Source of the DNA: an uncultured archaeon
GTDB lineage: Archaea; Asgardarchaeota; Thorarchaeia; Thorarchaeales; CAZPUN01
Assembly: GCA_964589775.1 (NCBI GenBank)
Contig: CAZPUN010000021.1
Coordinates: forward strand, 1 to 32,000
Length of the DNA stretch: 32,000 bases
Direction: 5' to 3'
Part shown: positions 9,801 through 27,120 of the stretch, in pieces
Layout of the letters: every line of letters starts with the position of its first letter
Numbering within the stretch: position 1 is the first letter of the stretch
Program-made: the position numbers and the translations under genes
The notes under the pieces: generated by a model
What the model saw: only the letters and a program-made list of their open reading frames with translations
The model's database searches: none
What the model was told of the DNA's origin: nothing

Positions 9801-10997
9801 TCACTCGGATTCCATAAGGCGCTTTTCCTCATCTGATTCAGTAATGCGCTTTTCCTCATCTGATTCAATAAGATCCGTTGTTTTTGCTTCTGAAACTTCA
9901 GATTCGGTTTCTTCAGGCAAATCACCAATATCTGTATCATTGCCACCTATTATTGGACGTGAAGATTTCGTATCTTCTTTGGGTTCTTCTTTGGGTTCTT
10001 CTTTGGGTTCTTCTTTGGGTTCTTCTTTGGGTTCTTCTTTGGGTTCTTCTTTGGGTTCTTTTTCGATTGTTTCGGATTCTGGTTTGCTTTCTTCTAATGG
10101 TTTTGCACCTGGTACTTCAAATTTCAATAATTCGGATAATGGTTTGTCTGGTAATTTCATACCCACGTATTCTGCTGCAGCTTTCAAGAGTAATCTCAGC
10201 ATTTCATCTCGACGCTTTTTATCAATAGCGACCATTGGATATGTTTGTACTCCTAGAATTCTCTGGATGACTTCGGGTTTCATAGCTCCCGGTTTATCTT
10301 GTTTATTTGCAATAACAAACAGTGGCACTTTTGGAGCATCTCTTCGAATCAGTTTCAAGATTTCTTTAGTAACTATAATATTTCTTAAGGTTGAATCAGT
10401 CACAAGGAATATTATATCTGAACCCTGGAAGTAAAACTTCCATAAGCTTCTGAAACGTTCCTGTCCTGCAAAGTCCCACAAAACAAGTTCATAAGTTCCG
10501 AATCTAATTCCTTCTACTCTTTCTACATTAAGTGCAATTGTTGGGACATACTGTTGTGGGGGTGTATCACCAAGCAATAGATGCAATAGGGTTGTTTTAC
10601 CAACACCACCTTCTCCAACTAATGAGACTTTAAGTTTTGTGATGACAACTTCTTTCATTAAAGTTGCGAAGTTTTCAATAACATAGTCTATGTCGTAATC
10701 TTCAAGAGTTTCTTCTAAAATTTCAATTGCCTGCGTTAATTTATCAGAGGTAGCGTGTTCATCTTCAGTGTGGTCTGTACAGAAAACAAGAATTAGATTA
10801 TCCAACATTCTGAAGAAGAATTTTGACTCTCCAACATGAAGGGGCAGATCTCCAAGTTCATCTATTGCATCTGCTAATTCGCTTAGTGTAAGCATGAATT
10901 CTTGGATTTCATCGTCCGTAACTTCAATGTCCCAGAATTTATTTCGTGCTAATACTTTTCCTGTGTCTTTGTCTATTAGTAATAGATTATGAATCAT
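9801..10997 (-). CDS. Longin-like domain + Ras-superfamily (Arf/Rab-like) small GTPase + acidic repeat tail
   Basis: G1 GEGGVGKT, G2 PTI, G3 WDFAGQ, G4 NKQD. N-terminal MIHNLLLIDKDTGKVLA... has a longin-like beta/alpha pattern. GGGGTGG RBS precedes ATG 10997. Confidence 0.9.
   Translation of the reverse strand: MIHNLLLIDKDTGKVLARNKFWDIEVTDDEIQEFMLTLSELADAIDELGDLPLHVGESKFFFRMLDNLILVFCTDHTEDEHATSDKLTQAIEILEETLEDYDIDYVIENFATLMKEVVITKLKVSLVGEGGVGKTTLLHLLLGDTPPQQYVPTIALNVERVEGIRFGTYELVLWDFAGQERFRSLWKFYFQGSDIIFLVTDSTLRNIIVTKEILKLIRRDAPKVPLFVIANKQDKPGAMKPEVIQRILGVQTYPMVAIDKKRRDEMLRLLLKAAAEYVGMKLPDKPLSELLKFEVPGAKPLEESKPESETIEKEPKEEPKEEPKEEPKEEPKEEPKEEPKEDTKSSRPIIGGNDTDIGDLPEETESEVSEAKTTDLIESDEEKRITESDEEKRLMESE
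9819..9867. repeat. 22-bp direct repeat with 27-bp period (ESDEEKR x2)
   Basis: GCGCTTTTCCTCATCTGATTCA at 9819-9840 and 9846-9867. Confidence 0.9.
9973..10056. repeat. Perfect 12-bp coding tandem repeat x7 (TCTTCTTTGGGT; EPKE)
   Basis: Seven identical units counted directly from 9973 to 10056. Confidence 0.95.
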
Positions 10998-11100
10998 TAA
11001 GGCCACCCCAATATAAAATACTGAATTTAAATTAATGCAAACTCTTATTTATATTATCTTATATTTTGCCATACTAATAAGGATTTTTCTAAATTTTTTA

Positions 11101-12219: not shown

Positions 12220-12295
12220 AAGTTATCACCGAATAGATTTTTCATGCAATATTTATAAGCACTTTTGATTTATTCACTATTGGAGTTGAGTGTTT

Positions 12296-13045
12296 ATGGG
12301 ACTGCTCAGCAGAATTCGAAATAGATGGAAGAGGCGAAAGGAAACTATTGTTGATTATAAAATCGAGAAGGACATCCGAGCTCATCCCCCAATTCCCCAA
12401 GTAAGTGTTCCAGTCCCTTCCGTACCCGAAAAGGAACCTAAGAAAGAAGTCGTAAGATTAGAAAAAATTGCAAAAGAATTAAAACGCGATTCACGTGGGC
12501 GGGTTCATCTCAAGATAGTTTTCTATGGTCCAAGCTTGAGTGGCAAAACAACAATGTTGCGATATATCTTTACAAAGCTTGAAGAAAGTTCAAAGGGTCA
12601 ATTGACAGAAACCTCGGACCCAACAGGAAGAACACTATTCTTTGATTTTGTACCGATTACTGTCACTCCTCATGTTGTTTTTGACATTTTCACAGTAGCC
12701 GGACAAAGAAGACATTATCGTCAGCGTAAAACCGTGTTGCGCGATGCGGATGGAATTATTTTCGTCGCTGATAGTTCGCCAGATGCTATAAATGAAAATA
12801 AGGATTCATTTGAGGAATTAAAGCGTTATTTGGGTCCTGAATTACTCCATTCAATACCTATCATAATAGCAATAAATAAGCGAGATCTTCCCAATGCTAT
12901 GCCCGTTGATGAAATCGTAAAGTTTCTTGGTATCGAAGAATATCCGATATTTGAAACCATAGCTATCACTGGTGAAAACTTACTAAAAGTATTCCGAACG
13001 ATCTTAAAGGAGACCATTTCATTTAGAATTAAGGGGCCTCTTTGA
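12296..13045 (+). CDS. MglA-like small GTPase with N-terminal extension
   Basis: KIVFYGPSLSGKTT, RTLFFDF, FTVAGQ, DGIIFVADS and NKRDLP are MglA-family signatures. Confidence 0.9.
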   Translation: MGLLSRIRNRWKRRKETIVDYKIEKDIRAHPPIPQVSVPVPSVPEKEPKKEVVRLEKIAKELKRDSRGRVHLKIVFYGPSLSGKTTMLRYIFTKLEESSKGQLTETSDPTGRTLFFDFVPITVTPHVVFDIFTVAGQRRHYRQRKTVLRDADGIIFVADSSPDAINENKDSFEELKRYLGPELLHSIPIIIAINKRDLPNAMPVDEIVKFLGIEEYPIFETIAITGENLLKVFRTILKETISFRIKGPL

Positions 13046-13046
13046 T

Positions 13047-13841
13047 TTATTCCTCTGGATAATCAGAGGCTTGTATTGGGCGGGTACCAAGTGTATCAAT
13101 ATTCAAGTGCTCTTTATCGACAATTAATTCATGAGTATTAATATCAAACTTAGCTGGAATTAATCCGTTAAGTACTGCATCCTCAACCATTTCTAATATA
13201 CGGTCCTTAGGTTCTCCTGTTAGATCACAAATTGCATTTATTGAAATTGCCGGCTCCACAACTGTTAGGAAATTCCTGATGTATGCAGCTAGTAAATTGT
13301 TTGCATAATCTCTTATTTTATTAACAAGCCATTTTGGAATCTTGTATTTATCATATTCGCGAATCATTTCATAAGCCGTATTGAAATCCATATTTGCCAG
13401 TTGTTTTACAAAATTAATTAATGGTTCATACGTATCCGGTAATTTCTCTTTAGCAATTCGTATTAATCGATTTGCCTCATTATCGTCTCCTGCAAGCAAC
13501 GAACAAAATGCAGCATCAATTAAATATCTGAAATCGTTTTCTGTTTCCACAGCTACTTCATAGGCTGCTGAAGCTTTGCCATAAAGTGTTTCATAATTAT
13601 CATAGTCTCCCATCTTTATTGCGGTATCTGCGGCAATTGTCAAAAGTTTAGCTCCATATGAGATCATTCCTGCTGTCATAAAAGCGTTTGATGCAGCTTC
13701 ATATGATTCCGCAGCCTTATCAAAAAACTCCCGTGCCTCGTAGCATTTTGCGGCTTTTAAATAAAATCTACCTGCCATTTCGCTACTGCCTGCATCTTCA
13801 TATGTCTTTGCTTTGGATGTTAACTCTTCACAGATACTCAT
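13047..13841 (-). CDS. TPR/alpha-SNAP-like solenoid + C-terminal PCI (winged-helix) domain protein
   Basis: Repeated A..Y..AA..Y helical motifs; C-terminal AISINAICDLTG...ILEMVEDAVLNGLIPAKFDINTHELIV matches the PCI consensus. Confidence 0.75.
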   Translation of the reverse strand: MSICEELTSKAKTYEDAGSSEMAGRFYLKAAKCYEAREFFDKAAESYEAASNAFMTAGMISYGAKLLTIAADTAIKMGDYDNYETLYGKASAAYEVAVETENDFRYLIDAAFCSLLAGDDNEANRLIRIAKEKLPDTYEPLINFVKQLANMDFNTAYEMIREYDKYKIPKWLVNKIRDYANNLLAAYIRNFLTVVEPAISINAICDLTGEPKDRILEMVEDAVLNGLIPAKFDINTHELIVDKEHLNIDTLGTRPIQASDYPEE

Positions 13842-15158: not shown

Positions 15159-15410
15159 ATTTGTTCACCAAATAGGTCCTCTTTGAATATTATTTAACCT
15201 AATGTTTATATAAAATATTGCATACTCTTTCTACACTTTAAAACATCTATATTAATTATTATATTTACGTAAGGCATATATTTTATATTAGTTAAAACAT
15301 TTAAATAAGTAAAAATCTATATGTGAATCATTGAAAATTAAGAATATCCACATAAAATAAAATGGGACTAAATCGTATGTACCCTTTATATGCACCTGAG
15401 GGGATTTAAT
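15159..15410. promoter_or_regulatory. AT-rich divergent promoter region
   Basis: Very AT-rich gap between divergent genes with TATA-like elements (e.g. TTTATATAAA at 15205-15214). Exact start sites are not assignable. Confidence 0.45.
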
Positions 15411-16262
15411 TTGATTAGAAATGTCTATATAATCAGTGATGAAGGAAGTATAATCTTCAGCAAAAACTATTCGGACAATAATAACAATACAGACTTGATT
15501 GAATTTCTAATTAGTCTTACCGAATTTGTGAATAATATGAATTTCCCGGAAAAAACTGAAACTATGGGTATGCATTCACTTCAGCTTTATTATTTACGCA
15601 AAGGTAATGTAATGTTTTATTTTGTTGCTGATAAGAGTGATGACCCCGAACAAGTAAAAGAAAAAATTGAGCAATTGTCCGATATATTTATGGAGAAATG
15701 GGGTAATATTGTAAAGAACTGGTCTGGAGATCCCAATGAGTTTGAGGGCATTGAAGAAGTTGTTGATAAAATTGCCGTAACTATGGTAAAGATTGCTCTA
15801 CTTGGATTTAGTTCAGTAGGAAAAACAACAACATTACGGTTATTACGCGGAGAGCCCGTTGCACTAACACACAAGGCAACAATCGGTGTAAATATCAAGT
15901 CTCTTTCCTCAGATATTGGAAATGCGAACTTGGTTATCTGGGACCTAGCTGGGCAGTCTAGGTTCTCAATTCTATGGAATAAGATGGTAAAGAATGCTCA
16001 AGTTGTTATTATAGTAACTGATAGTACGCTGGAAAATGTGTTGCGAAGTCGAAAGCTCGTGCAGATGGTTCAGAAAGAAGCTCCAACTGCGAAAATTATT
16101 GGAATTGCGAATAAGCAAGACTTACCTACTGCTCTAACTCCAGAGCGTGTAGGCCAAATTTTAGGTGTTCCAACCTACGAGCTAATTGCCATAGATCCAT
16201 CATATCGCGATAGGTTGCTTGCAATTCTTACCAAAGCAATTCTTGAAGTATCATCAACATAA
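15411..16262 (+). CDS. Longin-like domain + Ras-superfamily small GTPase (paralog of 9801-10997)
   Basis: G1 GFSSVGKT, G2 ATI, G3 WDLAGQ, G4 NKQD. N-terminal IRNVYIISDEGSIIFSKNY is longin-like. GAGGGG RBS suggests TTG 15411 (ORF track starts at 15390). Confidence 0.9.
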   Translation: MIRNVYIISDEGSIIFSKNYSDNNNNTDLIEFLISLTEFVNNMNFPEKTETMGMHSLQLYYLRKGNVMFYFVADKSDDPEQVKEKIEQLSDIFMEKWGNIVKNWSGDPNEFEGIEEVVDKIAVTMVKIALLGFSSVGKTTTLRLLRGEPVALTHKATIGVNIKSLSSDIGNANLVIWDLAGQSRFSILWNKMVKNAQVVIIVTDSTLENVLRSRKLVQMVQKEAPTAKIIGIANKQDLPTALTPERVGQILGVPTYELIAIDPSYRDRLLAILTKAILEVSST

Positions 16263-16341
16263 TGGTTCATTAGCAAAAATGTAAAAAGGTTTATTTATCT
16301 AATAAATGATAGTTAATAATAATGAGGGTCTGGTGATAAGT

Positions 16342-17106
16342 TTGAGCTTTGAACAACTAACCCAAGAAATCGCAATGATAAATGAAAAGTTAAAGAAAAT
16401 CGCTGGTTTTATGACCACTGTCTCAGAGACAAGAAGACTCATTGAAAACTTGCATGAGAATTTCAAAACAATGAAAAATCAAATCAATTCCACATTAGAG
16501 GAAATTGAGGATCAAATTGAAAAAATCAAGCAGAATATGGAAGAAATGCAGACGATCGCTCCTCAAACATCGTCATCTGCATCATCACAATCTGCTTCTG
16601 CACCTGTAAGTACTCCCACTCCTGCACCTGAGCCTGAACCAAAACCTCAGCCCGTAAAGGTTCCGGAACCAACACCTGAACCCGTACGTGCTCCAGAACC
16701 CGAACCCGTGGCGACTCCTGAACCCGTTAGTGTACCTGAGCCTGAGCCTATTGCAAGCCCATTTGGCGGTGCAGATATTGAGAGCGGTATGGGTGATGCT
16801 GAGGCATTATTAGAATCGGCACTTGCATCTGGCGAAAAAACTATGGATGCCTTATTTGGTGGTTCAAGTGCATCCGAATCTGCTGAGGCAAAGATTGAGA
16901 TTCCAACTACTTCTACTGAAAAAGAACCCGCTGAATTGCTTGAAGAGCTAAAACAAGAAAAAGAAAACATAAAGACTGCTCTTACAGATTTGCGATTTGA
17001 TTACATGCGTGGCTTAATTGATGAAGAAAATTACAAAGTTAAAGAATCAGAGCTCGAAGGAAAACTTGCATCAATTGAGAAACGCATACAAGAACTTACT
17101 GGATAA
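16342..17106 (+). CDS. Coiled-coil / Pro-Glu-rich linker / C-terminal helical-hairpin protein
   Basis: N-terminal heptads, PEPEP repeats, C-terminal LRFDYMRGLIDEENY hairpin. GGTGAT RBS suggests TTG 16342. Confidence 0.75.
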   Translation: MSFEQLTQEIAMINEKLKKIAGFMTTVSETRRLIENLHENFKTMKNQINSTLEEIEDQIEKIKQNMEEMQTIAPQTSSSASSQSASAPVSTPTPAPEPEPKPQPVKVPEPTPEPVRAPEPEPVATPEPVSVPEPEPIASPFGGADIESGMGDAEALLESALASGEKTMDALFGGSSASESAEAKIEIPTTSTEKEPAELLEELKQEKENIKTALTDLRFDYMRGLIDEENYKVKESELEGKLASIEKRIQELTG

Positions 17107-17843: not shown

Positions 17844-18548
17844 TTGATTATACGAAGTGATCCACCCGATATGAGTCTCTTAGTTGAGCGATTAATAAAA
17901 TATGCATATCCTGAATTGCGCACTCGAGATTTTATTATCTTATGGCGAAATATAAATGCAATTGCAGATATCACATGGGCGAAATGGGGTGGCGAAGTTC
18001 GAATAAGATTACATCCTATAGTGAAATCTTTTAACGACCCAATGTTAATTGGAACATTTGCACATGAACTAAGCCATGTAGCTCTAAAAGAAAATAACTC
18101 CGATGAATGGGAAACCGACTTTGATGTTGTAAAGCGTGGTCTAGGTCCATACCTTGCAATTGAGCGCGCATCTACTGGAATTTATTATGATCAACCTGCG
18201 CGTGGTAAATCTAAACCATATATGGGATTCTACACTATAATGGGATTACTGTCTGAAGATAGTAAGAAAAATACAGAACGCCTTGCAAAATTAATAAACC
18301 TTGATATTGCTCGTGAATTACCTCTCATTAGTACCAAGTCGATGCCAATGTCACACGATACTCTTTATCAAAAATTTGATAATGAATACGTTCTATCAAT
18401 AGATGGGGAAGAAATCTTACTTGATGCGGAGTATGATGAAAATAGCGACATAAATATTGAGATCCGTAATGGTGAGATTGTTGTATTCATTGATGGGAAG
18501 CCTGCAAAGATAAAGAAAATCAATCACTCTTCTTTGCAAAACATCTGA
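17844..18548 (+). CDS. Putative zincin-like metallopeptidase (HExxH)
   Basis: FAHELSHV followed by a candidate third ligand in EWETD; no signal peptide. The start could be ATG 17871. Confidence 0.65.
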   Translation: MIIRSDPPDMSLLVERLIKYAYPELRTRDFIILWRNINAIADITWAKWGGEVRIRLHPIVKSFNDPMLIGTFAHELSHVALKENNSDEWETDFDVVKRGLGPYLAIERASTGIYYDQPARGKSKPYMGFYTIMGLLSEDSKKNTERLAKLINLDIARELPLISTKSMPMSHDTLYQKFDNEYVLSIDGEEILLDAEYDENSDINIEIRNGEIVVFIDGKPAKIKKINHSSLQNI

Positions 18549-19290
18549 TAAATTTGTTAACGGATGCTTTGTATCCTTCATTAGAAATAGCTGAAATTTC
18601 AATATTTATTTTTGTACTAGTTTTTGTGTCTGGCAGCTTTAATGGAAAGACAAGTTCTTCAGTATCAAATGCCATAAGATCTAAGTTTCTTTCTATGAAC
18701 AGTAATATCTTATCAGATGAACTTCTCACTGTAAATTTAATTAAAACTGATAATGGATAACTCGAATAATTCATAATTTTTACAGGAATATTCAATAACG
18801 TCCCTGAATATGTAATTGAAGGTATATTCTCAATAAGTAATTTTAAGGGGCTCCTGGTTCTTTCAATTGATGTTTGAGCCATACTCAATAGTGATTTTGT
18901 TTCTTCTGCAATTTGGTTATCGCCATAAGATTCTGAGATAATACATGCATTTGAACAATATATTGAGCCATTATGTATAACCCAACAGGAGCTACATACA
19001 ATTTTACCACATATTTTACAACTTCCAATTAATTGTGGGGGCTCAAATTTTGTACTTGTGTATTTCTTGGCATGAGCTTTGCAGAATCCTCTACCGCAAA
19101 CTGAGCATTTTATCTCAGCAGGTGCTCCACAAATTTTGCAGACGTCTTGGGACTCTTTCTCGCCGGGTTCTGCGTGTTCTATCTTATAGTAGATTGAGTC
19201 TGGGCATTTTGGATTTATACAAGGTCCCACACCCTTATAGGCGCCACATGTCGGGCAAAACGGTTCAAGCATTTCTTTTCGTTTGGTCAT
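18520..19290 (-). CDS. Multi-zinc-finger (B-box/AN1-like) protein with C-terminal Ig-like domain
   Basis: CPTC..CINPKC; CKIC-x7-CSVC-x4-CKAH; CKIC..CSSC..YCSNAC; then a beta-rich segment 'SGTLLNIPVKIMN...'. Confidence 0.75.
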   Translation of the reverse strand: MTKRKEMLEPFCPTCGAYKGVGPCINPKCPDSIYYKIEHAEPGEKESQDVCKICGAPAEIKCSVCGRGFCKAHAKKYTSTKFEPPQLIGSCKICGKIVCSSCWVIHNGSIYCSNACIISESYGDNQIAEETKSLLSMAQTSIERTRSPLKLLIENIPSITYSGTLLNIPVKIMNYSSYPLSVLIKFTVRSSSDKILLFIERNLDLMAFDTEELVFPLKLPDTKTSTKINIEISAISNEGYKASVNKFIRCFAKKSD

Positions 19291-19460: not shown

Positions 19461-21878
19461 TTGTCCAAAGAGTTCCTTATTCCTCCAATCGCAACAGAAA
19501 AGGTTGCTATTTCGGGTTCTGAACCAATTGAACAATCTCTTCCAGATGATATCATAATCGCTGCTGCTTTATATGATGCATGGAATACGAAGGATGGAGA
19601 GCCCGTATTTTTAATTGAAGCTTTTTTGAAGATATTAGTTGCATCATCTCCTGAAGAAGAAAAAAGTATATTAATTGAAAATTTATCGTTGATCACGTCT
19701 CCAATATCCATTTATCAAATTGAGAATATAGAAAATATAATTGAAAAGATACGTGATGTTAAGAGAATTGAAGATTTGATGGAACTTATTAAAGATATTG
19801 AAAAACAACTGGGTAAGAATAAGAAGCAAAATATAACGATTCCCGGTTTACTTGCAGGGAAATTTTTGAAAGAGATCGGTCAATATATATCAATTTCTCG
19901 GCCTCAGAAACTTAAGGAATATTATACAGTTTTTCCAGACTTTGGTGGTATTAATGTTCATGAGACCGCACGACTTGTTCGTGAATCTTATGATAAATCT
20001 ATGAAGGCATTAAAAGCATATCGACTTGCATTAGAAGCTCTTGATATTAAACCAAAAGAATTGTTAGAACCTGAACGTAAGCGTATCAGTCGGGATATTG
20101 AGCGATTAAGAGTTCGTATTGAACAGTTACAAAAACGTATTAATGAACTGAATTACAATTTGAATAAAGGCTTAAAAATGCGAGAGGAAATGCTACGAGC
20201 ACGTCTGGAACAAAAGATAGAAGCGTTTGATTTTTCAAAATTAGAAATTAAACGAATGAAAATGGAACTTGAAGATGAAATTGAATCTCTGCGTAAAGAG
20301 TATGAAGATGAATTAGAAAAAAAGAATCGTGCAATAGCGAAGGACAAGGAACGATTAGAAAAACTCGAGAAAATACAAAAGGATTTGGATAAATTTTCAA
20401 AGAAAGAACTTGATAAAATCAAGAAAAAGATTGAAAATGTAATTTCTGAAATTTCACATTATATCGATAAACTCGAAGACGAAGTTATGGTAAATGCAGG
20501 TAGTCTCAGTAATGGTAAAGATACATATGTTTTAATACCATTTTTGATTTTTGGATTGCAGAAAGGCAGTAAGAAAAAAATAAAGTTGATTGGGCCATCG
20601 CAATTAGTAAAAGAGAAATCCAAGGATCATACGCTATTAGAACCGAGAAATGAATCTCTTCAACATTTACAAAATATGATTGAAGAGCGAATTGAGATTG
20701 ATACGTCATTACGAAGTTTTATCTATGATGAAGCTGATTTACGAAATGCATTTGCATTGGAAGAACCGCGTAAATTTATTTTGCGTGGTTTAATTAAACT
20801 TGTGTCTGATGGTTTTGTCAAACGTAATGACATCAAACGAATTGTTTCAAAAATTGAATCTTTCGAATTAATAGAAAGTCCAGAAATAATTGAAATAACT
20901 GATACAACGGACTTGGGTGAAGCGATCTCTCCTGAAGTTACAATTGAAGACGGCGGGAAAGGTTATGGCTCAGTACGAATTTTTGTTACAGATTCTGAGG
21001 GCAAGCGAATTCCTGAAGCCGTTTTAACATTAAATCGCAAAGAATATACTGCAGACAAGCGTGGTATAATCAACCTTTCATTAAAATCTGGTAAAAAGCG
21101 CGGTATTATTAAAGCTGAAGGATTTTACGATAAGAAAATTGTATTTCCTGTTAAAAATGATGCTTCAATATCTTTGCAAGTTAAACTTGATCCTATTCCT
21201 CCTGAAGAAATGTTGGCAAAACGAATCGATGAAATTACAAAGAAAGCTGAACGTACTGAAAAATTGTGGGAGAAATTACAGAAAGCCTTTGAAAAACATG
21301 GTGATGCAATTCTTCGTAATCCAAAATATCTCAGTGTTCTTGAAGAAATGCTTTCGGAAATGGGCATATCCCCAGAAGCATGGATTGCTGAAGCGAGTAA
21401 AACTCCAGACATGGTCTCGCGTTTATTCAAGAAAGGTCCATATTATGAAGGTCTTAGACGCGATATAATTTCTCTAATTGACACGTCCAAAGAATCCGGT
21501 GGAATTCTTGCATTATCTGAAGTCATTATGATATTGTCTAAAAAAGGTTGGAAAATATCTCCCGATGAAATTATAAAAACTATTGAAGATCTATCTAAGC
21601 AAGGATTAATTGGAGGAATTTCTGTACTGGATAATGGAATTAAAGTTGTACATTTCGTTCCCGTAGAAATGACGAAAGATCCACAGACAGTCATGTCTGT
21701 TGCTGCTAAACATAAAGGTAAAATTACACTTGAAACAGTAATTCTAGAACTTGGTTGGACTGAAGAGCGCGCAGAACGTGCATTGGAAAGCCTAGTTAAT
21801 GCCGGTATTGCAAAGGTTCAGAAAACCTATTCTCGAAGTTATATTTATTGGTTCCCAAGCTTAATGGAGAAGAAATAA
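19461..21878 (+). CDS. Large coiled-coil + beta-sandwich + ESCRT-II Vps22/SNF8 (EAP30)-like fusion protein
   Basis: The C-terminal ~220 aa (KHGDAILRNPKY...EMGISP...YYEGL...GGILALSE...ISPDEIIKTI...VPVEMTKD...LGWTEERAERALESLVNAG...YWFPSL) align motif by motif with eukaryotic SNF8/Vps22 as recalled. Confidence 0.88.
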   Translation: MSKEFLIPPIATEKVAISGSEPIEQSLPDDIIIAAALYDAWNTKDGEPVFLIEAFLKILVASSPEEEKSILIENLSLITSPISIYQIENIENIIEKIRDVKRIEDLMELIKDIEKQLGKNKKQNITIPGLLAGKFLKEIGQYISISRPQKLKEYYTVFPDFGGINVHETARLVRESYDKSMKALKAYRLALEALDIKPKELLEPERKRISRDIERLRVRIEQLQKRINELNYNLNKGLKMREEMLRARLEQKIEAFDFSKLEIKRMKMELEDEIESLRKEYEDELEKKNRAIAKDKERLEKLEKIQKDLDKFSKKELDKIKKKIENVISEISHYIDKLEDEVMVNAGSLSNGKDTYVLIPFLIFGLQKGSKKKIKLIGPSQLVKEKSKDHTLLEPRNESLQHLQNMIEERIEIDTSLRSFIYDEADLRNAFALEEPRKFILRGLIKLVSDGFVKRNDIKRIVSKIESFELIESPEIIEITDTTDLGEAISPEVTIEDGGKGYGSVRIFVTDSEGKRIPEAVLTLNRKEYTADKRGIINLSLKSGKKRGIIKAEGFYDKKIVFPVKNDASISLQVKLDPIPPEEMLAKRIDEITKKAERTEKLWEKLQKAFEKHGDAILRNPKYLSVLEEMLSEMGISPEAWIAEASKTPDMVSRLFKKGPYYEGLRRDIISLIDTSKESGGILALSEVIMILSKKGWKISPDEIIKTIEDLSKQGLIGGISVLDNGIKVVHFVPVEMTKDPQTVMSVAAKHKGKITLETVILELGWTEERAERALESLVNAGIAKVQKTYSRSYIYWFPSLMEKK

Positions 21879-21880
21879 AA

Positions 21881-22555
21881 ATGTCTTCAATTGCAAAAAA
21901 GTTCGGAAAATTAGAAAAGCAACTTCAAAAATTAAACATTACATTAGATCGCCTGATTGAGGATGTAAAACAAGTACAGGAAGCAAGTTCGAAAATTGAT
22001 TATGCAACATCACTTAATTATTTGAAAAACCTTGGTGAAGTATTACTAACGGGTACATCGCCATTCTATATTATCATCCAGCAGTTTTCAACTAAAGAAT
22101 ATAAGAATGTTGTGAAAGTTTTCACCGATAGCGACATATTTAATGTGATTGCAATCAACAATCCTTCTGAAGACTATATCTCAAATCATAATATACTAAG
22201 TGTCATAATTGCCGATTCACAAAAATTCGGAGAATCTATAATTCCGACCATAATTAATTTGCGTTTTTCAGCATTTCCTTCCTTCTATGATGATACAACT
22301 GTATTCATAGGAAACCGATATCTTCATGATACAAAAGGAGTATTAGAAAAATTATTCACAAAATTAGAAAATAAAGGATTTACCGTCTTGTATGATGAAA
22401 AGGATTTTGGCGGCGGTCCTTTTGTTTATCAAGCGATCAACCAATTCGGTCCGGTTCCACGAGTTTCGATATTTGAAATAACGGTGTCTGAAAAATTAAT
22501 AAACATGGTTGATAAGCTTGAATCTATCTATAAGGTGTTTGTTACTGTAATGTAA
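21881..22555 (+). CDS. Coiled-coil + alpha/beta domain resembling a degenerate N-formylglutamate amidohydrolase fold
   Basis: ATG 2 bp after the upstream stop; VFIGNRY...LENKGFTV...FGGG...IFEITVSEKL pattern. The CDS is secure; the product is tentative. Confidence 0.55.
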   Translation: MSSIAKKFGKLEKQLQKLNITLDRLIEDVKQVQEASSKIDYATSLNYLKNLGEVLLTGTSPFYIIIQQFSTKEYKNVVKVFTDSDIFNVIAINNPSEDYISNHNILSVIIADSQKFGESIIPTIINLRFSAFPSFYDDTTVFIGNRYLHDTKGVLEKLFTKLENKGFTVLYDEKDFGGGPFVYQAINQFGPVPRVSIFEITVSEKLINMVDKLESIYKVFVTVM

Positions 22556-22569
22556 AGGGTGTATGCTAA

Positions 22570-25500
22570 TTGAAATTGACTCGCCTTCCATATACTCATG
22601 GTATTGAAGTAGAGCTTCAAGTGCTTAATGATGATGGAACCTGGATTAGTGGCGAGGCTATAGTGGATATTTTTAATGATATAATTACCCGCGCGAAAGA
22701 AATAATTGAAGAATCCGCAGCTAAATCTGAAGTTTCCGTTATACATGAACGTTTTTTGGGATTGAAAATTGTTGAGAAAGACCCTAAAAAAGGTACAAAA
22801 ATTGTTGTCAAATATAAGTTGAAAGATGGTCGTGTAAAAGAATTTGATATAATGTCCCGTGACCCCCATATTGCTACAGTAACATATATCTTAGAAGTGG
22901 TTACACCTCCGTGTGACTATCTGGAAGAACTTGCATGGTGGATTCACATTCTAGTTTCCTCGGCTGAAAAATCGCTTCCCGCAGAAAAAGGAGTTATTCT
23001 AGTCTCAACGGGTTTGAATCCTACAGTGGATTATTTTAAAGGATTATCATTTGGTGAGCATCACCATATTTTAGGCCCAGAAGTGCCAAGCGAGGAAAAA
23101 TTAGCTGTGTATAATTTACTTCGTAATTTCATACCCCATATTATTGCGCTAACGGTAAACTCCCCTATTGTGAACGGAAAACCAACTGATGAAATACGTG
23201 AGTTACCTGATGGTAGAATAAGAGCTCCCCGTTGTATTCGCAGTATTCGACTCCAAATGAATTGTGCTCAGCTCGGTCCATGTTCTGATCGCGAATACAT
23301 TCCATACATGATTAGAGCATCTCCTGATGAGTTTGCTCTTAATGTCAACAGAGACCCACCGCGTATGGTTGATATGTATCCATTTACGGATTATGGAACC
23401 ATAGAACTAAGATGTGTTGACACTCAGCTTAGTATTCCCCGGAGAATTGGAATAGCTGCTATAATCCAAGCAATAGCATTAAAAGCGTCTAAATTATATA
23501 AGGCAGGACGACAAATTCCAGATGTGGGTAAAAAGTCAATCGTTCAAAATCGTGAGCGTGCAGTTTCAGCTGGATTGTGGGGACGATTCGAAAAACCTGA
23601 AGGTTTAGAAAAAATTGATCCTGAATTTGCAGCGTACTATTCATACAAGATCGGTCCCGATGGTCGTCCTGATATTTCAAAAGTAAATCGATATCTTTCT
23701 GATGCTGTAGAAGGTCTAATTGCGTATATTAAGGAAGAATTAGATGAACTCGAATTAATTGATAATGAATTTATGCAACCTTTATTTGTATCTATATTTG
23801 GTAGCTCTACAATTGAGCCTCGTACTACCACAGCGGATTATCAACTTATTGAATATTATTCCACCGGAAATAATGTATCTGCATTATTAAGAAAGCTTGT
23901 GAATATAACCGAAGATTGCTCTACTAATTGGTTATATGATCCCTTATCTGGAACACCAGATTTACCCGGATGGCTCAAATGGTGGACCGAAATTAATGTG
24001 GATATAAAACTTCTTTCGCCCACAGTATTTAGTGGGAATGATGTTAATTTTGTTGTTGAAATAAAAAATGGGAGTACCATAACATTACCAAATGTTGTTA
24101 TATCAATCTCCGTATTAAATGGTGAAAAAGAACAGGTATTTGCCGATACAATTCCGATTGGAAATATACATGCTGGTGATGTTATTCCCGTAGAGCGAGT
24201 TTTTAGCACACTTGATGGTTCTTCGTCATACGTAATACTTGCTGTTGCAAAAATTGGTACTAGGGAAATAAAGTTTCAGAAGTCGTTAAACACATATCGT
24301 GTCAAATCTACTATTAATGTGTTGGTTGACCATATTATTCCTCAATCCAAGACGTCCATTCCTTTCAAAGCTAGCATCTGGACAAATTATCCTGAAGACC
24401 AAGAAATTTCAGCCGAAGTATTATGTGTAAGTTCCAATGGGGAAGTTCTTGCAAAAGGCCAGTACAATTTTATACTTCCTAAAGAAGAAAAGAAGGTATT
24501 CAATCAAGAAAACTTTGAAAATATTATTATATCTCCAGAAGATGCAATTGGTCTTAAAAGATGCCATTTGGAACTGATTGTGAAAAATAAGTCTGGGCAT
24601 GTTTTGACAAAATCAATATCTAATAAATTCTATATTAGTTTTAGAGGCCCACAATTTGAAGTATCCTATGATATGCCTTCAACTATTAGTAATCCCGACA
24701 TTGAAAAAGTATCTGTTTCCCTAAGAATTAATTCATCAAGCATGATTAATCCTCATGATGTTGAAGCTTCCGTATTTTATTCTGTTGGACACTCATCAAA
24801 AATTCTAATTGGTAATTACAAGATCTTTGAAATTCCTGAATCTATTTCTGTTGAAATTCCAATACCTAAATATGAGGATAATTTCGAAATTTATTTTCAT
24901 ACAACTATTAAGTATAAAGGACATAAAATTACAACTATAAAAAGCCCGCCTCTATTAATTTCGAAATCGCAAGCAGTTCAAATTGAAAATATATTTGCCC
25001 CTGAAACCGTTTTTAAAAATTCGAAATTTAATGTGGGTGTAAAATTAAGATTTCCTTCAGACAAAACCGAAACTGTCAATTTAATCCTTGGTATTAGAAC
25101 TCCTACCGGTGCTGATGTGGTTCTCTCACAAAATAAGATCGCAAATAGTGGGGAAATTTACGTACCATTAGGACCATTCACTCCCTGGGGCATATTATCT
25201 GATTATGATTATTTCATGCTTTATGTGGCATTAGAGCAAAAGAATAAAATAATTGATATCAAGCAAAAGAAGGTTGAAATCACACATCTTAAAGAAATGA
25301 ATATTGATGTTGTATTTGGGAAAGTTGAAACAAATGTAACTGTTGGCTCAGATTTATCATGCTTGATTTTATTGAAAAACACAACGGACCAAGTATCCAA
25401 TCTGGTAGTTCATTATAAGATCTACGAACTATCTGGAAAACAGATTAATAGTGATTCTCATAAAATCGTTCTTGAAGAATATGGTGAAAAATATCTTCCA

Positions 25501-25989
25501 CTAAATATACCCATCCCTGTTTTTATCAAGCCGGGTAAATACAATCTAAATATTTATGTTGAAACTGAAGGCGCAATCATTAGTTCCTATATGACTTCAT
25601 TTAATGTTCTTGATATGACTGGCGAAGCTGTAACCATAAAGTTTAGATTCGAAAGTCTTAGAGGTGAGCCATATTCTTCACTTCTTCCGTCAGGAAAATT
25701 GATACATATTTTTGTTGATGTCCTATCGCAAATATCGCTAAAAGGTCGTATTTCTTTAGACCTTCTTCTTAGATCTGGTCGTACAATAGTCGATACCCTT
25801 AGCATTGAACTAAAACCTATGAATGCAGGGGATCAAATAACTATTGGACCCTTAGATTGGACCGTGCCATATACGGAAGATACCACTACATATATGTTTG
25901 AACCCGTCTTGAGAGTAAATAATAATAGACTTTCGCCCCAACTCATAAATATTGAGAATAACCAAATTAGAGTATTTAGTGCAATATAA
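22570..25989 (+). CDS. GCS2/YbdK-family carboxylate-amine ligase fused to tandem Ig-like domains
   Basis: GIEVELQ, LEVVTPPC, STGLNP, FGEHHHI, IIALTVNSP, RSIR, YGTIELRCVDTQ in the first ~470 aa; the remaining ~670 aa are beta-rich CARDB/Ig-like repeats. Confidence 0.88.
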   Translation: MKLTRLPYTHGIEVELQVLNDDGTWISGEAIVDIFNDIITRAKEIIEESAAKSEVSVIHERFLGLKIVEKDPKKGTKIVVKYKLKDGRVKEFDIMSRDPHIATVTYILEVVTPPCDYLEELAWWIHILVSSAEKSLPAEKGVILVSTGLNPTVDYFKGLSFGEHHHILGPEVPSEEKLAVYNLLRNFIPHIIALTVNSPIVNGKPTDEIRELPDGRIRAPRCIRSIRLQMNCAQLGPCSDREYIPYMIRASPDEFALNVNRDPPRMVDMYPFTDYGTIELRCVDTQLSIPRRIGIAAIIQAIALKASKLYKAGRQIPDVGKKSIVQNRERAVSAGLWGRFEKPEGLEKIDPEFAAYYSYKIGPDGRPDISKVNRYLSDAVEGLIAYIKEELDELELIDNEFMQPLFVSIFGSSTIEPRTTTADYQLIEYYSTGNNVSALLRKLVNITEDCSTNWLYDPLSGTPDLPGWLKWWTEINVDIKLLSPTVFSGNDVNFVVEIKNGSTITLPNVVISISVLNGEKEQVFADTIPIGNIHAGDVIPVERVFSTLDGSSSYVILAVAKIGTREIKFQKSLNTYRVKSTINVLVDHIIPQSKTSIPFKASIWTNYPEDQEISAEVLCVSSNGEVLAKGQYNFILPKEEKKVFNQENFENIIISPEDAIGLKRCHLELIVKNKSGHVLTKSISNKFYISFRGPQFEVSYDMPSTISNPDIEKVSVSLRINSSSMINPHDVEASVFYSVGHSSKILIGNYKIFEIPESISVEIPIPKYEDNFEIYFHTTIKYKGHKITTIKSPPLLISKSQAVQIENIFAPETVFKNSKFNVGVKLRFPSDKTETVNLILGIRTPTGADVVLSQNKIANSGEIYVPLGPFTPWGILSDYDYFMLYVALEQKNKIIDIKQKKVEITHLKEMNIDVVFGKVETNVTVGSDLSCLILLKNTTDQVSNLVVHYKIYELSGKQINSDSHKIVLEEYGEKYLPLNIPIPVFIKPGKYNLNIYVETEGAIISSYMTSFNVLDMTGEAVTIKFRFESLRGEPYSSLLPSGKLIHIFVDVLSQISLKGRISLDLLLRSGRTIVDTLSIELKPMNAGDQITIGPLDWTVPYTEDTTTYMFEPVLRVNNNRLSPQLINIENNQIRVFSAI

Positions 25990-26226
25990 TTGTAAAATTT
26001 GGTATTTTTTGGGGTGGTCTTTTGTATTATATTTTTATCAAACAACAATTAACGAATTTAGTATGTATTTTTCGACAATTATCGATTATTTTTTCATTCA
26101 TGTAGTAACCCTTAAATGTAATTACTTTGAAACTAGCTATTGTTAAGTGTCAGTCAGTAGTCGCAGTTATAATGATAGTTGTACAGAATCATGACACTTG
26201 CCAAATAATATGGAGATGTGAATGAT

Positions 26227-27120
26227 ATGTTTGAACTGTTGAATCATACATTAACTATAGGCATCATCGTAGTCAGCTTCCTTGCGGTAGTGTCATATAA
26301 GCTTCGGTTCGTTGACTTCTCAGGACTTGTCTCAGCTTACATAATCGGCATAATCGTATGGTATACTGGTGGTCCTGGTGCATTTGCATTACTGTTATTC
26401 TTCTTAGTGAGTGCCAGTATTGCTACAAAATACAAGTACAAAGCAAAAGAGGCTGCGGGCGTTGCTCAGGAAGGCAAAGGCATGCGAAATTGGAAAAACG
26501 TGATCTATAGTGGTCTTATTCCGACTTTATTCTCCATAGGTGGATACCTAGCACCCAATTTTGGACTTGACTCACTTATATTCACATATGGCTTTATAGG
26601 CGCCGTTGCAACTACGACTGCAGACACTTTAGCAAGTGAAATTGGTGTATTTAGTCAATCAAAACCAAGATTGATTACAAATCTACGCCGTAAAGTTCCA
26701 CGAGGAACTATTGGTGCAGTATCTTCATTAGGTGAATATGTTGCATTATTCAGCAGTCTTGCTGTTGGCATTTTAGCCTATATTTTTGCTATTCTTGGAA
26801 TTATACCTGTAAATAATTCAATAGTTGTAATCATTATAGCTACCGTGGCTGGTTTTATTGGTTGTAATACTGATAGTCTCATAGGGGCTGTCTTTCAAGC
26901 AAAATACCAATGCACAGTCTGTGGTAAAATAACCGATAAAACTCTTCATTGTGGAAAGCCAACCGTGTATCGTCGTGGATTTAAACGTGTAGATAATACT
27001 GTTGTAAACTTTACATCATCTACTCTCGGCGCAACAATTGCAATTATTCTTGTAACTGGTCTGTTGATCTATCTCTTAAGTGCTTTATTCCTATGGCTCG
27101 TTGCTACATCTGGAGATTAA
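26227..27120 (+). CDS. DUF92/TMEM19-family membrane protein
   Basis: ATKYK...K, RNWKNV, ADTLASEIG, PRLIT..R.VP.GT.GAVS..G, DSLIGAVFQ, Zn-ribbon insert CTVCG...HCG, DN..VNF. Confidence 0.92.
   Translation: MFELLNHTLTIGIIVVSFLAVVSYKLRFVDFSGLVSAYIIGIIVWYTGGPGAFALLLFFLVSASIATKYKYKAKEAAGVAQEGKGMRNWKNVIYSGLIPTLFSIGGYLAPNFGLDSLIFTYGFIGAVATTTADTLASEIGVFSQSKPRLITNLRRKVPRGTIGAVSSLGEYVALFSSLAVGILAYIFAILGIIPVNNSIVVIIIATVAGFIGCNTDSLIGAVFQAKYQCTVCGKITDKTLHCGKPTVYRRGFKRVDNTVVNFTSSTLGATIAIILVTGLLIYLLSALFLWLVATSGD

Follow-up and report, generated by a model that had tools for sequence, protein, structure and literature searches.

What might an archaeal cell do with a carboxylate-amine ligase whose catalytic domain is followed by 665 residues of immunoglobulin-like (Ig-like) domains? 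The question is raised by an open reading frame (ORF) at positions 22570–25989, on the forward strand, of the first 32,000 nucleotides (nt) of contig CAZPUN010000021.1 (GenBank assembly GCA_964589775.1), a stretch to which we refer as the window. The ORF runs without interruption from a TTG start at 22570, preceded by the ribosome-binding-site-like AGGGTG at 22556–22561, and encodes 1139 amino acid residues (aa); an alternative TTG at 22576 yields the 1137-aa form present in the database. The window is Asgard-archaeal, with a GC content of ~35%, several Arf/Roc-type GTPases, an EAP30 domain and SNAP- and syntaxin-like matches, and our genome survey places the host, which has a single copy of the ligase, in a separate family of the same order as the Thorarchaeota-named genomes. 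A preliminary description of the sequence had seen in this protein a GCS2 ligase with retained metal and ATP residues, joined to an Ig array that hinted at macromolecular substrates or scaffolding. The analysis presented here indicates that the protein is very probably an active ligase belonging to a conserved module, together with a small partner protein, a vWA protein and an Amidohydro_2 hydrolase; the proposal that this module works on a macromolecular substrate is, taken as a whole, evenly balanced between acceptance and rejection.

The ligase domain and its relatives

The N-terminal 470 residues (aa 1–470, positions 22570–23979, forward strand) are the best-conserved part of the protein, and their assignment as a YbdK/GCS2-fold carboxylate-amine ligase domain is based on Pfam, on a profile comparison with the PDB, on structural matching and on invariant residues. 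The Pfam model GCS2 (PF04107) scores 23.6 bits against a cut-off of 21 (E 4e-5), aligning aa 173–206 only, and it matches all 38 aligned homologues; the NCBIfam models for YbdK/GshA (TIGR02050, NF0100xx) remain below their curated cut-offs, with 52.3 against 176.4 bits for the best and 26–48 against 332–427 bits for the others. We have used an alignment of 28 divergent ligase domains, which share 27–48% identity with the window protein, to analyse conservation. When a profile made from these domains is compared with the PDB, the sole family returned at E≤0.01 is YbdK (E 6e-18), PafA/Dop not being among the matches, and the alignment spans the ExE strand, the LE..T strand, the HxH motif and the GT-x-E-x-R..D strand. 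Residues E15, E109, H166, R227, E279, R281 and D284 are invariant over the 28 domains, and E13, H164, R185 and D268 are conserved in at least 90% of them. Every residue that had been singled out as a retained metal or ATP ligand, in ExE (E13/E15), LEVVT (E109), GEHHH (H164/H166), RSIR (R227) and ELR..D (E279/R281/D284), falls in one of these two classes, and the ExE, E, HxH and E-x-R..D sets line up with E17/E19, E60, H136/H138 and E237, R239 and D242 of YbdK.

The structural evidence goes along with this picture. In the AlphaFold2 model of the complete protein, obtained from a 38-sequence alignment with a mean predicted local distance difference test score (pLDDT) of 79.7, residues 6–448 are closest to the YbdK-type protein 1tt4 (Z 28.0 over 323 residues, root-mean-square deviation 3.3, 21% identity), followed by the plant glutamate-cysteine ligase 2gwc (Z 22.1) and by the pupylation enzymes Dop (Z 19.5) and PafA (Z 17.6), all of which rank above GshF/GshA (Z 14.6–16.9) and the glutamine synthetases (Z about 12–15). 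Loops modelled with low confidence lie around residues 151–159, 198–205 and 228–233. Alignment and model together confirm the predicted domain as a genuine YbdK/GCS2 fold with a complete set of catalytic residues.

The ligase is widespread among Asgard archaea and occurs in several architectures. The full-length ligase-Ig form of ~1140 aa makes up about 108 clusters at 90% identity, mostly named Thorarchaeota, a few being named Lokiarchaeota, Promethearchaeota, Sifarchaeia or Hermodarchaeota; the window protein shares 73% identity with its nearest relative and about 32% with the others. An exhaustive profile search with the ligase domain gave 105 clusters (50% identity) at E<1e-30, in which the same ~460-aa domain is also found standalone, in Heimdall-named proteins of about 470–590 aa, or fused to tails of 1000–1400 aa, to a vWA protein, to zinc ribbons and, as C-terminal domain, to giants of 2200–3800 aa. 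YbdK-type enzymes are normally single-domain proteins, as the preliminary description had pointed out, and the architecture of the window protein departs from that. The fusion is nevertheless common within the Thorarchaeota order, 51 of whose 60 sampled genomes carry the ligase, and we have found no characterisation of it: the literature returned no published account of the ligase-Ig family, the 2009 amidoligase survey (Iyer et al.) not being covered. Over a sample of 251 Asgard genomes, grouped in GTDB-style families, the ligase is encoded in 133, belonging to nine sampled families besides the window's own, and is absent from 18 families.

Some observations on the other forms may be added. 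In the giants P0128, P0129, P0136, P0138, P0141, P0151 and P0177 (2232–3804 aa) the ligase domain is C-terminal and the remainder is almost devoid of Pfam matches, with HHH motifs in one. The N-terminal extension of ~260 aa in the ligases of ~700 aa was considered as a fused partner and rejected (hhalign 0.4%), as was the N-terminus of the zinc-ribbon form P0163 as a vWA domain.

The Ig-like arm and the partner protein

Just behind the WLKWW motif (aa 468–472, positions 23971–23985) starts the arm, which comprises aa 475–1139 (positions 23992–25986, forward strand) and is all-beta in the AlphaFold2 model, with no helical domain. Analysis of the model by DSSP resolves six beta-sandwiches of the macroglobulin (MG)/CARDB-like Ig type, where five or six had been expected from the sequence; their approximate limits are aa 475–576 (positions 23992–24297), 577–692 (24298–24645), 693–800 (24646–24969), 801–906 (24970–25287), 907–1017 (25288–25620) and 1018–1139 (25621–25986). 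The absence of a transmembrane segment, also remarked upon before, is borne out by the highest Kyte-Doolittle 19-mer average, 1.33, and neither a transmembrane nor a signal segment is found in the 1139-aa protein. As modelled, the arm is a generic set of Ig-like sandwiches, predicted to be cytoplasmic.

Structural comparisons uphold the Ig-like nature of the arm and relate it to a broad range of proteins. Foldseek ranks highest the MG-domain arrays of alpha2-macroglobulin, C5 and CD109, along with hydin-like ciliary arrays, at E-values from 4e-21 to 1e-17 yet with TM-scores of only about 0.17. Taken domain by domain, VIA gives Z 11–13.5 for GH2 Ig-like domains, the Wzt CBD, the MG domains of C3/C4/A2M, transglutaminase C-terminal domains and arrestin N-lobes, and weak Pfam matches in the arm are to MG2 (13 of the 38 homologues) and CARDB (7 of the 38). 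A likeness to large TRAPP subunits or adaptin appendages, which had been suggested, was discarded, as neither is present among the 50 highest-ranking matches of Foldseek or of VIA; a match to a COP-gamma platform in a single homologue out of 38, with E 0.04, is meaningless. We have likewise rejected the possibility that the six domains are recent tandem repeats: a clear relationship can be made out only between domains 3 and 5 (hhalign 92%, E 6e-7). The arm as a whole evolves much faster than the ligase domain.

Having clustered the neighbouring gene families over 86 loci, we observe that a protein of ~222 aa is encoded immediately upstream of the ligase in 61 of them, the window included. Here this partner protein (about 224 aa) lies at 21881–22555 on the forward strand, with an ATG at 21881, and is separated from the ligase by 14 nt. 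Its AlphaFold2 model (pLDDT 90.5, predicted TM-score 0.79) consists of an N-terminal 55-residue helix, forming a coiled coil, and an alpha/beta domain. Three structures tie as its best matches at Z 11.9, namely pyroglutamyl peptidase I (3rnz), N-formylglutamate amidohydrolase (2q7s) and the FGase-family protein 2odf, the last of which is also the top Foldseek match (E 2e-5); the poly-gamma-glutamate hydrolases PghP and YndL reach Z 10.9 and 10.3. These are enzymes that cut glutamyl amide bonds. Since other members of the broad phosphorylase/peptidase fold come close behind, at Z 9–10, the match is a fold assignment rather than a family membership. In the partner family G155, R157, D183, G188–G190 and T212 are invariant; no His, Cys or Glu ligand is invariant in the family alignment, and for this reason the partner may be a pseudo-enzyme retained for binding.

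The gene of ~260 aa upstream of the ligase in Jord/Frey genomes is a homologue of the partner (hhalign 97.5%, E 5e-12); the 425-aa family of neighbouring proteins was also tried as one and rejected. In a 61-genome sample, the partner occurs only where the ligase bears the Ig arm, that is in G046, the sole Ig-bearing genome of family f2 in this sample, in two of three genomes of f7 and in three of three of f19, and in none of the six genomes of a family with an Ig-less ligase of ~565 aa. This restriction suggests that the partner and the arm work together.

Co-occurrence with a vWA protein and a metal hydrolase, and the genomic neighbourhood

Across genomes, the ligase is accompanied by a specific Cdc48N-vWA protein and by an Amidohydro_2 hydrolase. 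The vWA family, counted at E≤1e-50, is present in 134 of the 251 Asgard genomes, and its distribution over the families closely follows that of the ligase: 51 of 60 genomes for both in f2, 52 (vWA) and 50 (ligase) of 54 in f9, 6 of 6 for both in f19, 5 of 5 for both in f7, 10 and 11 of 16 in f22, 5 of 5 for both in f27 and 2 of 5 for both in f24, the count being zero for both in all other sampled families. A mismatch between the two is observed in only four of the 251 genomes, copy numbers run in parallel, and the near-complete genomes of the Thorarchaeota order that lack the ligase are the same ones that lack the vWA protein. As the genomes are related and not independent, this comparison is to be read as a pattern and not as a statistic. 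A natural fusion, P0162 (962 aa), joins an entire Cdc48N-vWA protein to the ligase domain (hhalign 100%, E 4e-41). The Amidohydro_2 family, for its part, retains the HxH, His and Asp metal ligands.

The ligase and the vWA-hydrolase pair are physically linked at loci L004, L005, L006, L070–L074 and L086–L088, in different arrangements. The Jord/Frey order is a 425-aa gene, the partner, the ligase, the vWA protein (~490 aa) and the Amidohydro_2 protein (~490 aa); a Heimdall-named locus has, on one strand, vWA, a 429-aa gene, a ligase of 544 aa and Amidohydro_2; and in Thermoplasmatota and Aenigmarchaeota the order is Amidohydro_2, two small proteins, a ligase of ~720 aa and vWA. The two small proteins are paralogues of 130–180 aa (L086:1180-2224, L087:1274-2282 and L088:52-1027, minus strand). 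In Thor/Loki loci the pair lies ~7 kb downstream of the ligase, past Band_7, NfeD, Rce1-like and HEAT genes. The host genome of the window has orthologues of both proteins on another contig, vWA at G000:C36:5860-7188 (minus strand, E 2.9e-142) and, adjoining it, Amidohydro_2 at G000:C36:7242-8759 (minus strand, E 4e-117), in a block that keeps the Thor/Loki order of Rce1-like, HEAT, vWA and Amidohydro_2 genes. An 871-aa ORF beside this pair (G000:C36:9492-12107, plus strand; L095) has only a degenerate match to Amidohydro_2 (profile E 3.7e-21, Pfam E 0.01) and is possibly an inactive Amidohydro_2 paralogue or fusion. Locus L006, which belongs with the giant ligase proteins, has vWA genes flanking both sides.

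Two further neighbours deserve mention. Downstream of the ligase, 228 nt past its stop, an integral membrane protein of the DUF92/TIGR00297 family is encoded at 26218–27120 (forward strand, Pfam E 1e-67), and DUF92 occupies position +1 or +2 in 57 loci, the window included. No terminator was detected between the two genes in a bacterial-type scan, which is uninformative for archaea. Upstream, at 19461–21878 (forward strand), lies the gene for an 805-aa protein with a C-terminal EAP30 (Vps22/36-like) domain (Pfam E 3e-19), a coiled coil and a weak match to a CarboxypepD_reg-like sandwich, whose stop is 2 nt ahead of the partner ATG. Among the 86 loci, this adjacency is seen in the window and in its sister locus L007 only. 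A second EAP30 protein, of ordinary size (273 aa), is encoded on contig C64 (G000:C64:32304-32810), so that the host may have two paralogues of the Vps22/36 type of the endosomal sorting complex required for transport II (ESCRT-II). The corresponding position ahead of the partner is taken in 50 Thor/Loki/Hermod loci by a 145-aa gene that is not in the window, its host orthologue being found at G000:C59:57290-57469 (minus strand; L094), cut by the end of contig C59. Kinship among the 805-aa protein, the 145-aa Thor family and the 425-aa Jord/Frey/Heimdall family was rejected, all hhalign values being below 1%; any link to ESCRT-II would therefore be specific to the lineage of the window.

Divergent from the EAP30 operon, a 256-aa protein with weak B-box/Cys-His zinc-finger matches is encoded at 18520–19290 (minus strand), and its gene is also present in L007. 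Further away, three small GTPase genes of the Arf/Roc/Ras family lie inside 6.5 kb, at 9801–11006 (minus), 12290–13045 (plus) and 15390–16262 (plus), two of them with N-terminal extensions of ~120 aa, accompanied by a SNAP/TPR-like protein (13047–13841, minus; Pfam SNAP E 2.6e-7) and by a coiled-coil protein with weak CdvA and syntaxin matches (16306–17106, plus).

What the module may do

We propose that the ligase would be the writer subunit of a conserved archaeal module. The ligase domain would use ATP to activate a carboxylate, most likely of the glutamate type, as an acyl-phosphate, which would then be joined to an amine. The Ig arm and the partner would keep a large substrate in place or stabilise the complex, the partner possibly acting as binder, since glutamyl amide bonds are what all its relatives in fold work on; the vWA protein would dock the ligase through its metal-ion site, and the Amidohydro_2 enzyme would reverse or process the amide. 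The favoured target would be a protein or a peptide, bearing a pupylation-like or glutamylation-like mark, and in the lineage of the window the operon would be co-transcribed with the ESCRT-II-like protein. A macromolecular target is favoured because the ligase domain is repeatedly fused to non-catalytic modules, has a vWA protein as its putative adaptor and comes structurally close to Dop and PafA. The weak ubiquitin-family matches of the two small proteins in the Thermoplasmatota version of the module point the same way. The earlier suggestion that the Ig array itself points to macromolecular substrates or scaffolding can be kept as plausible, on the grounds of the ligase fusions to vWA, zinc ribbons and giant proteins. 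The most far-reaching version of the proposal would be a ubiquitin-independent, pupylation-like marking in Asgard archaea, with an Ig-armed GCS2-fold writer, an FGase-fold pseudo-hydrolase reader, a Cdc48N-vWA adaptor and an Amidohydro_2 eraser, wired in the lineage of the window to an ESCRT-II (Vps22/36-like) protein and with the amide tag feeding membrane remodelling; we regard it as improbable.

Several results weigh against the macromolecular proposal. No tag or target was found in the analysis: the 145-aa Thor protein was rejected as a Pup-like tag, its C-terminal residue not being conserved, and the ubiquitin/Rad60-SLD/YukD matches of the N-terminal halves of the two small proteins in the Thermoplasmatota and Aenigmarchaeota loci (E 0.01–0.02) are below threshold. 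Patches of the Ig arm that are kept among Thor genomes are not kept in the window protein. The large Asgard family f9, with the ligase in 50 out of 54 genomes, has it without an Ig arm or a detectable partner, which implies that neither is needed for catalysis. The host assembly has the ligase on contig C21 and the vWA-hydrolase pair on contig C36, so that they are unlinked. Finally, both Amidohydro_2 (PF04909) enzymes and YbdK are known for small-molecule chemistry.

This last point leads to a different explanation, which we consider possible without being probable: the ligase would form a gamma-glutamyl-type or other low-molecular-weight amide, such as a thiol precursor, a compatible solute or a lipid head-group derivative. 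With the same tentative standing, the Amidohydro_2 enzyme would belong to the same pathway, and the arm, the partner and the vWA protein would only organise or regulate the complex, perhaps at the membrane side near DUF92. Such a role would agree with YbdK and the plant glutamate-cysteine ligase being the closest relatives by sequence and structure, with the typically metabolic nature of PF04909 members, with the frequent Ig-less forms of ~565 aa, and with the binding of small glutamyl amides by the fold relatives of the partner (FGase, pyroglutamyl peptidase). DUF92 adjacency, conserved from Thor/Loki to the lineage of the window, goes in the same direction, but the gene is 228 nt away and is absent from Jord/Frey/Heimdall loci. 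The explanation also has to face NCBIfam YbdK/GshA scores far under their cut-offs (52 against 176 bits) and the loss of the Arg of the YbdK D-I-R-P motif, which reads D-M-Y-P here and varies in the family; moreover, a metabolic ligase would not usually be fused time and again to large non-catalytic modules, nor be inherited together with a Cdc48N-vWA adaptor.

Two other explanations are less likely. In the lineage of the window, the ligase might supply ESCRT-II with an input other than ubiquitin, by marking cargo or ESCRT components that the 805-aa Vps22/36-like protein would receive. The EAP30, partner and ligase genes on one strand, with gaps of 2 and 14 nt, the retention of this arrangement in the sister genome at 72–73% protein identity, and the presence elsewhere of the ordinary-sized EAP30 protein, which would leave the 805-aa one free to specialise, are what one would expect in that case. 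However, an adjacency limited to the window and one sister locus of 86 represents a single shallow lineage and is weak evidence, and the genes at the same position in other lineages are unrelated (145-aa or 425-aa family, hhalign below 1%), so that we judge such coupling decidedly improbable. Still more so, to a degree that makes it a marginal option, is an inactive scaffold in which the ligase fold persists solely as a binding module: the low-confidence loops and the short, weak Pfam GCS2 match would be compatible with it, but the invariance of the metal and ATP ligands across relatives of 27–48% identity, within the best-conserved 470 aa of the protein, argues for catalysis.

In respect to significance, what appeared as an odd fusion protein is now a defined four-protein set, and its cytoplasmic Ig arm is unusual. 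The conserved gene set of ligase-Ig protein, partner, vWA protein and metal hydrolase is apparently undescribed. If the module writes and erases a protein amide mark, it would represent a third prokaryotic tagging chemistry beside the ubiquitin-like and Pup systems, found in those archaea that are most closely related to eukaryotes; even with a small-molecule substrate, it would be a widely conserved Asgard enzyme complex of no assigned function, with its ligase in 133 of 251 genomes.

Comparison with known systems sets out both likenesses and differences. Like alpha2-macroglobulin, complement C3–C5 and CD109, the arm is built from serial fibronectin-III-like beta-sandwiches, six in this case; unlike them it is cytoplasmic and lacks thioester (helical TED), bait and CUB domains, and with TM-scores of about 0.17 only the domain type and the seriality are common to both. 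With the actinobacterial PafA/Dop system the module shares the carboxylate-amine ligase fold and the pairing of a ligase with an enzyme that would here be the amide-cleaving one, a macromolecular target being only suspected. The likeness to PafA and Dop is a structural one, neither being returned by the profile comparison with the PDB at E≤0.01; the part of the hydrolase falls to an Amidohydro_2 TIM barrel unrelated to the ligase, instead of a ligase paralogue, and proteasome and Mpa genes are not nearby. A gene for a Pup-like tag with a conserved C-terminal Gln/Glu was not found, both the 145-aa family and the partner having variable C-termini. The YbdK/GCS2 ligases (PF04107, TIGR02050; E. 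coli YbdK 1r8g, Salmonella 1tt4) have the same fold and the same ExE, E, HxH and E-x-R..D set. In comparison with YbdK, the ligase domain of the window is about 100 aa longer, the family is without about 21 residues that YbdK has ahead of HxH, and D226-I-R-P of YbdK aligns to D268-M-Y-P, position 270 being variable in the family and Arg being present in both solved YbdK sequences, in a motif that comes before the GT-x-E-x-R strand; these last two differences, as far as can be judged from the alignment, may bear on the choice of substrate. To the shared catalytic core the window protein adds a 665-aa Ig arm and a place within a four-gene module.

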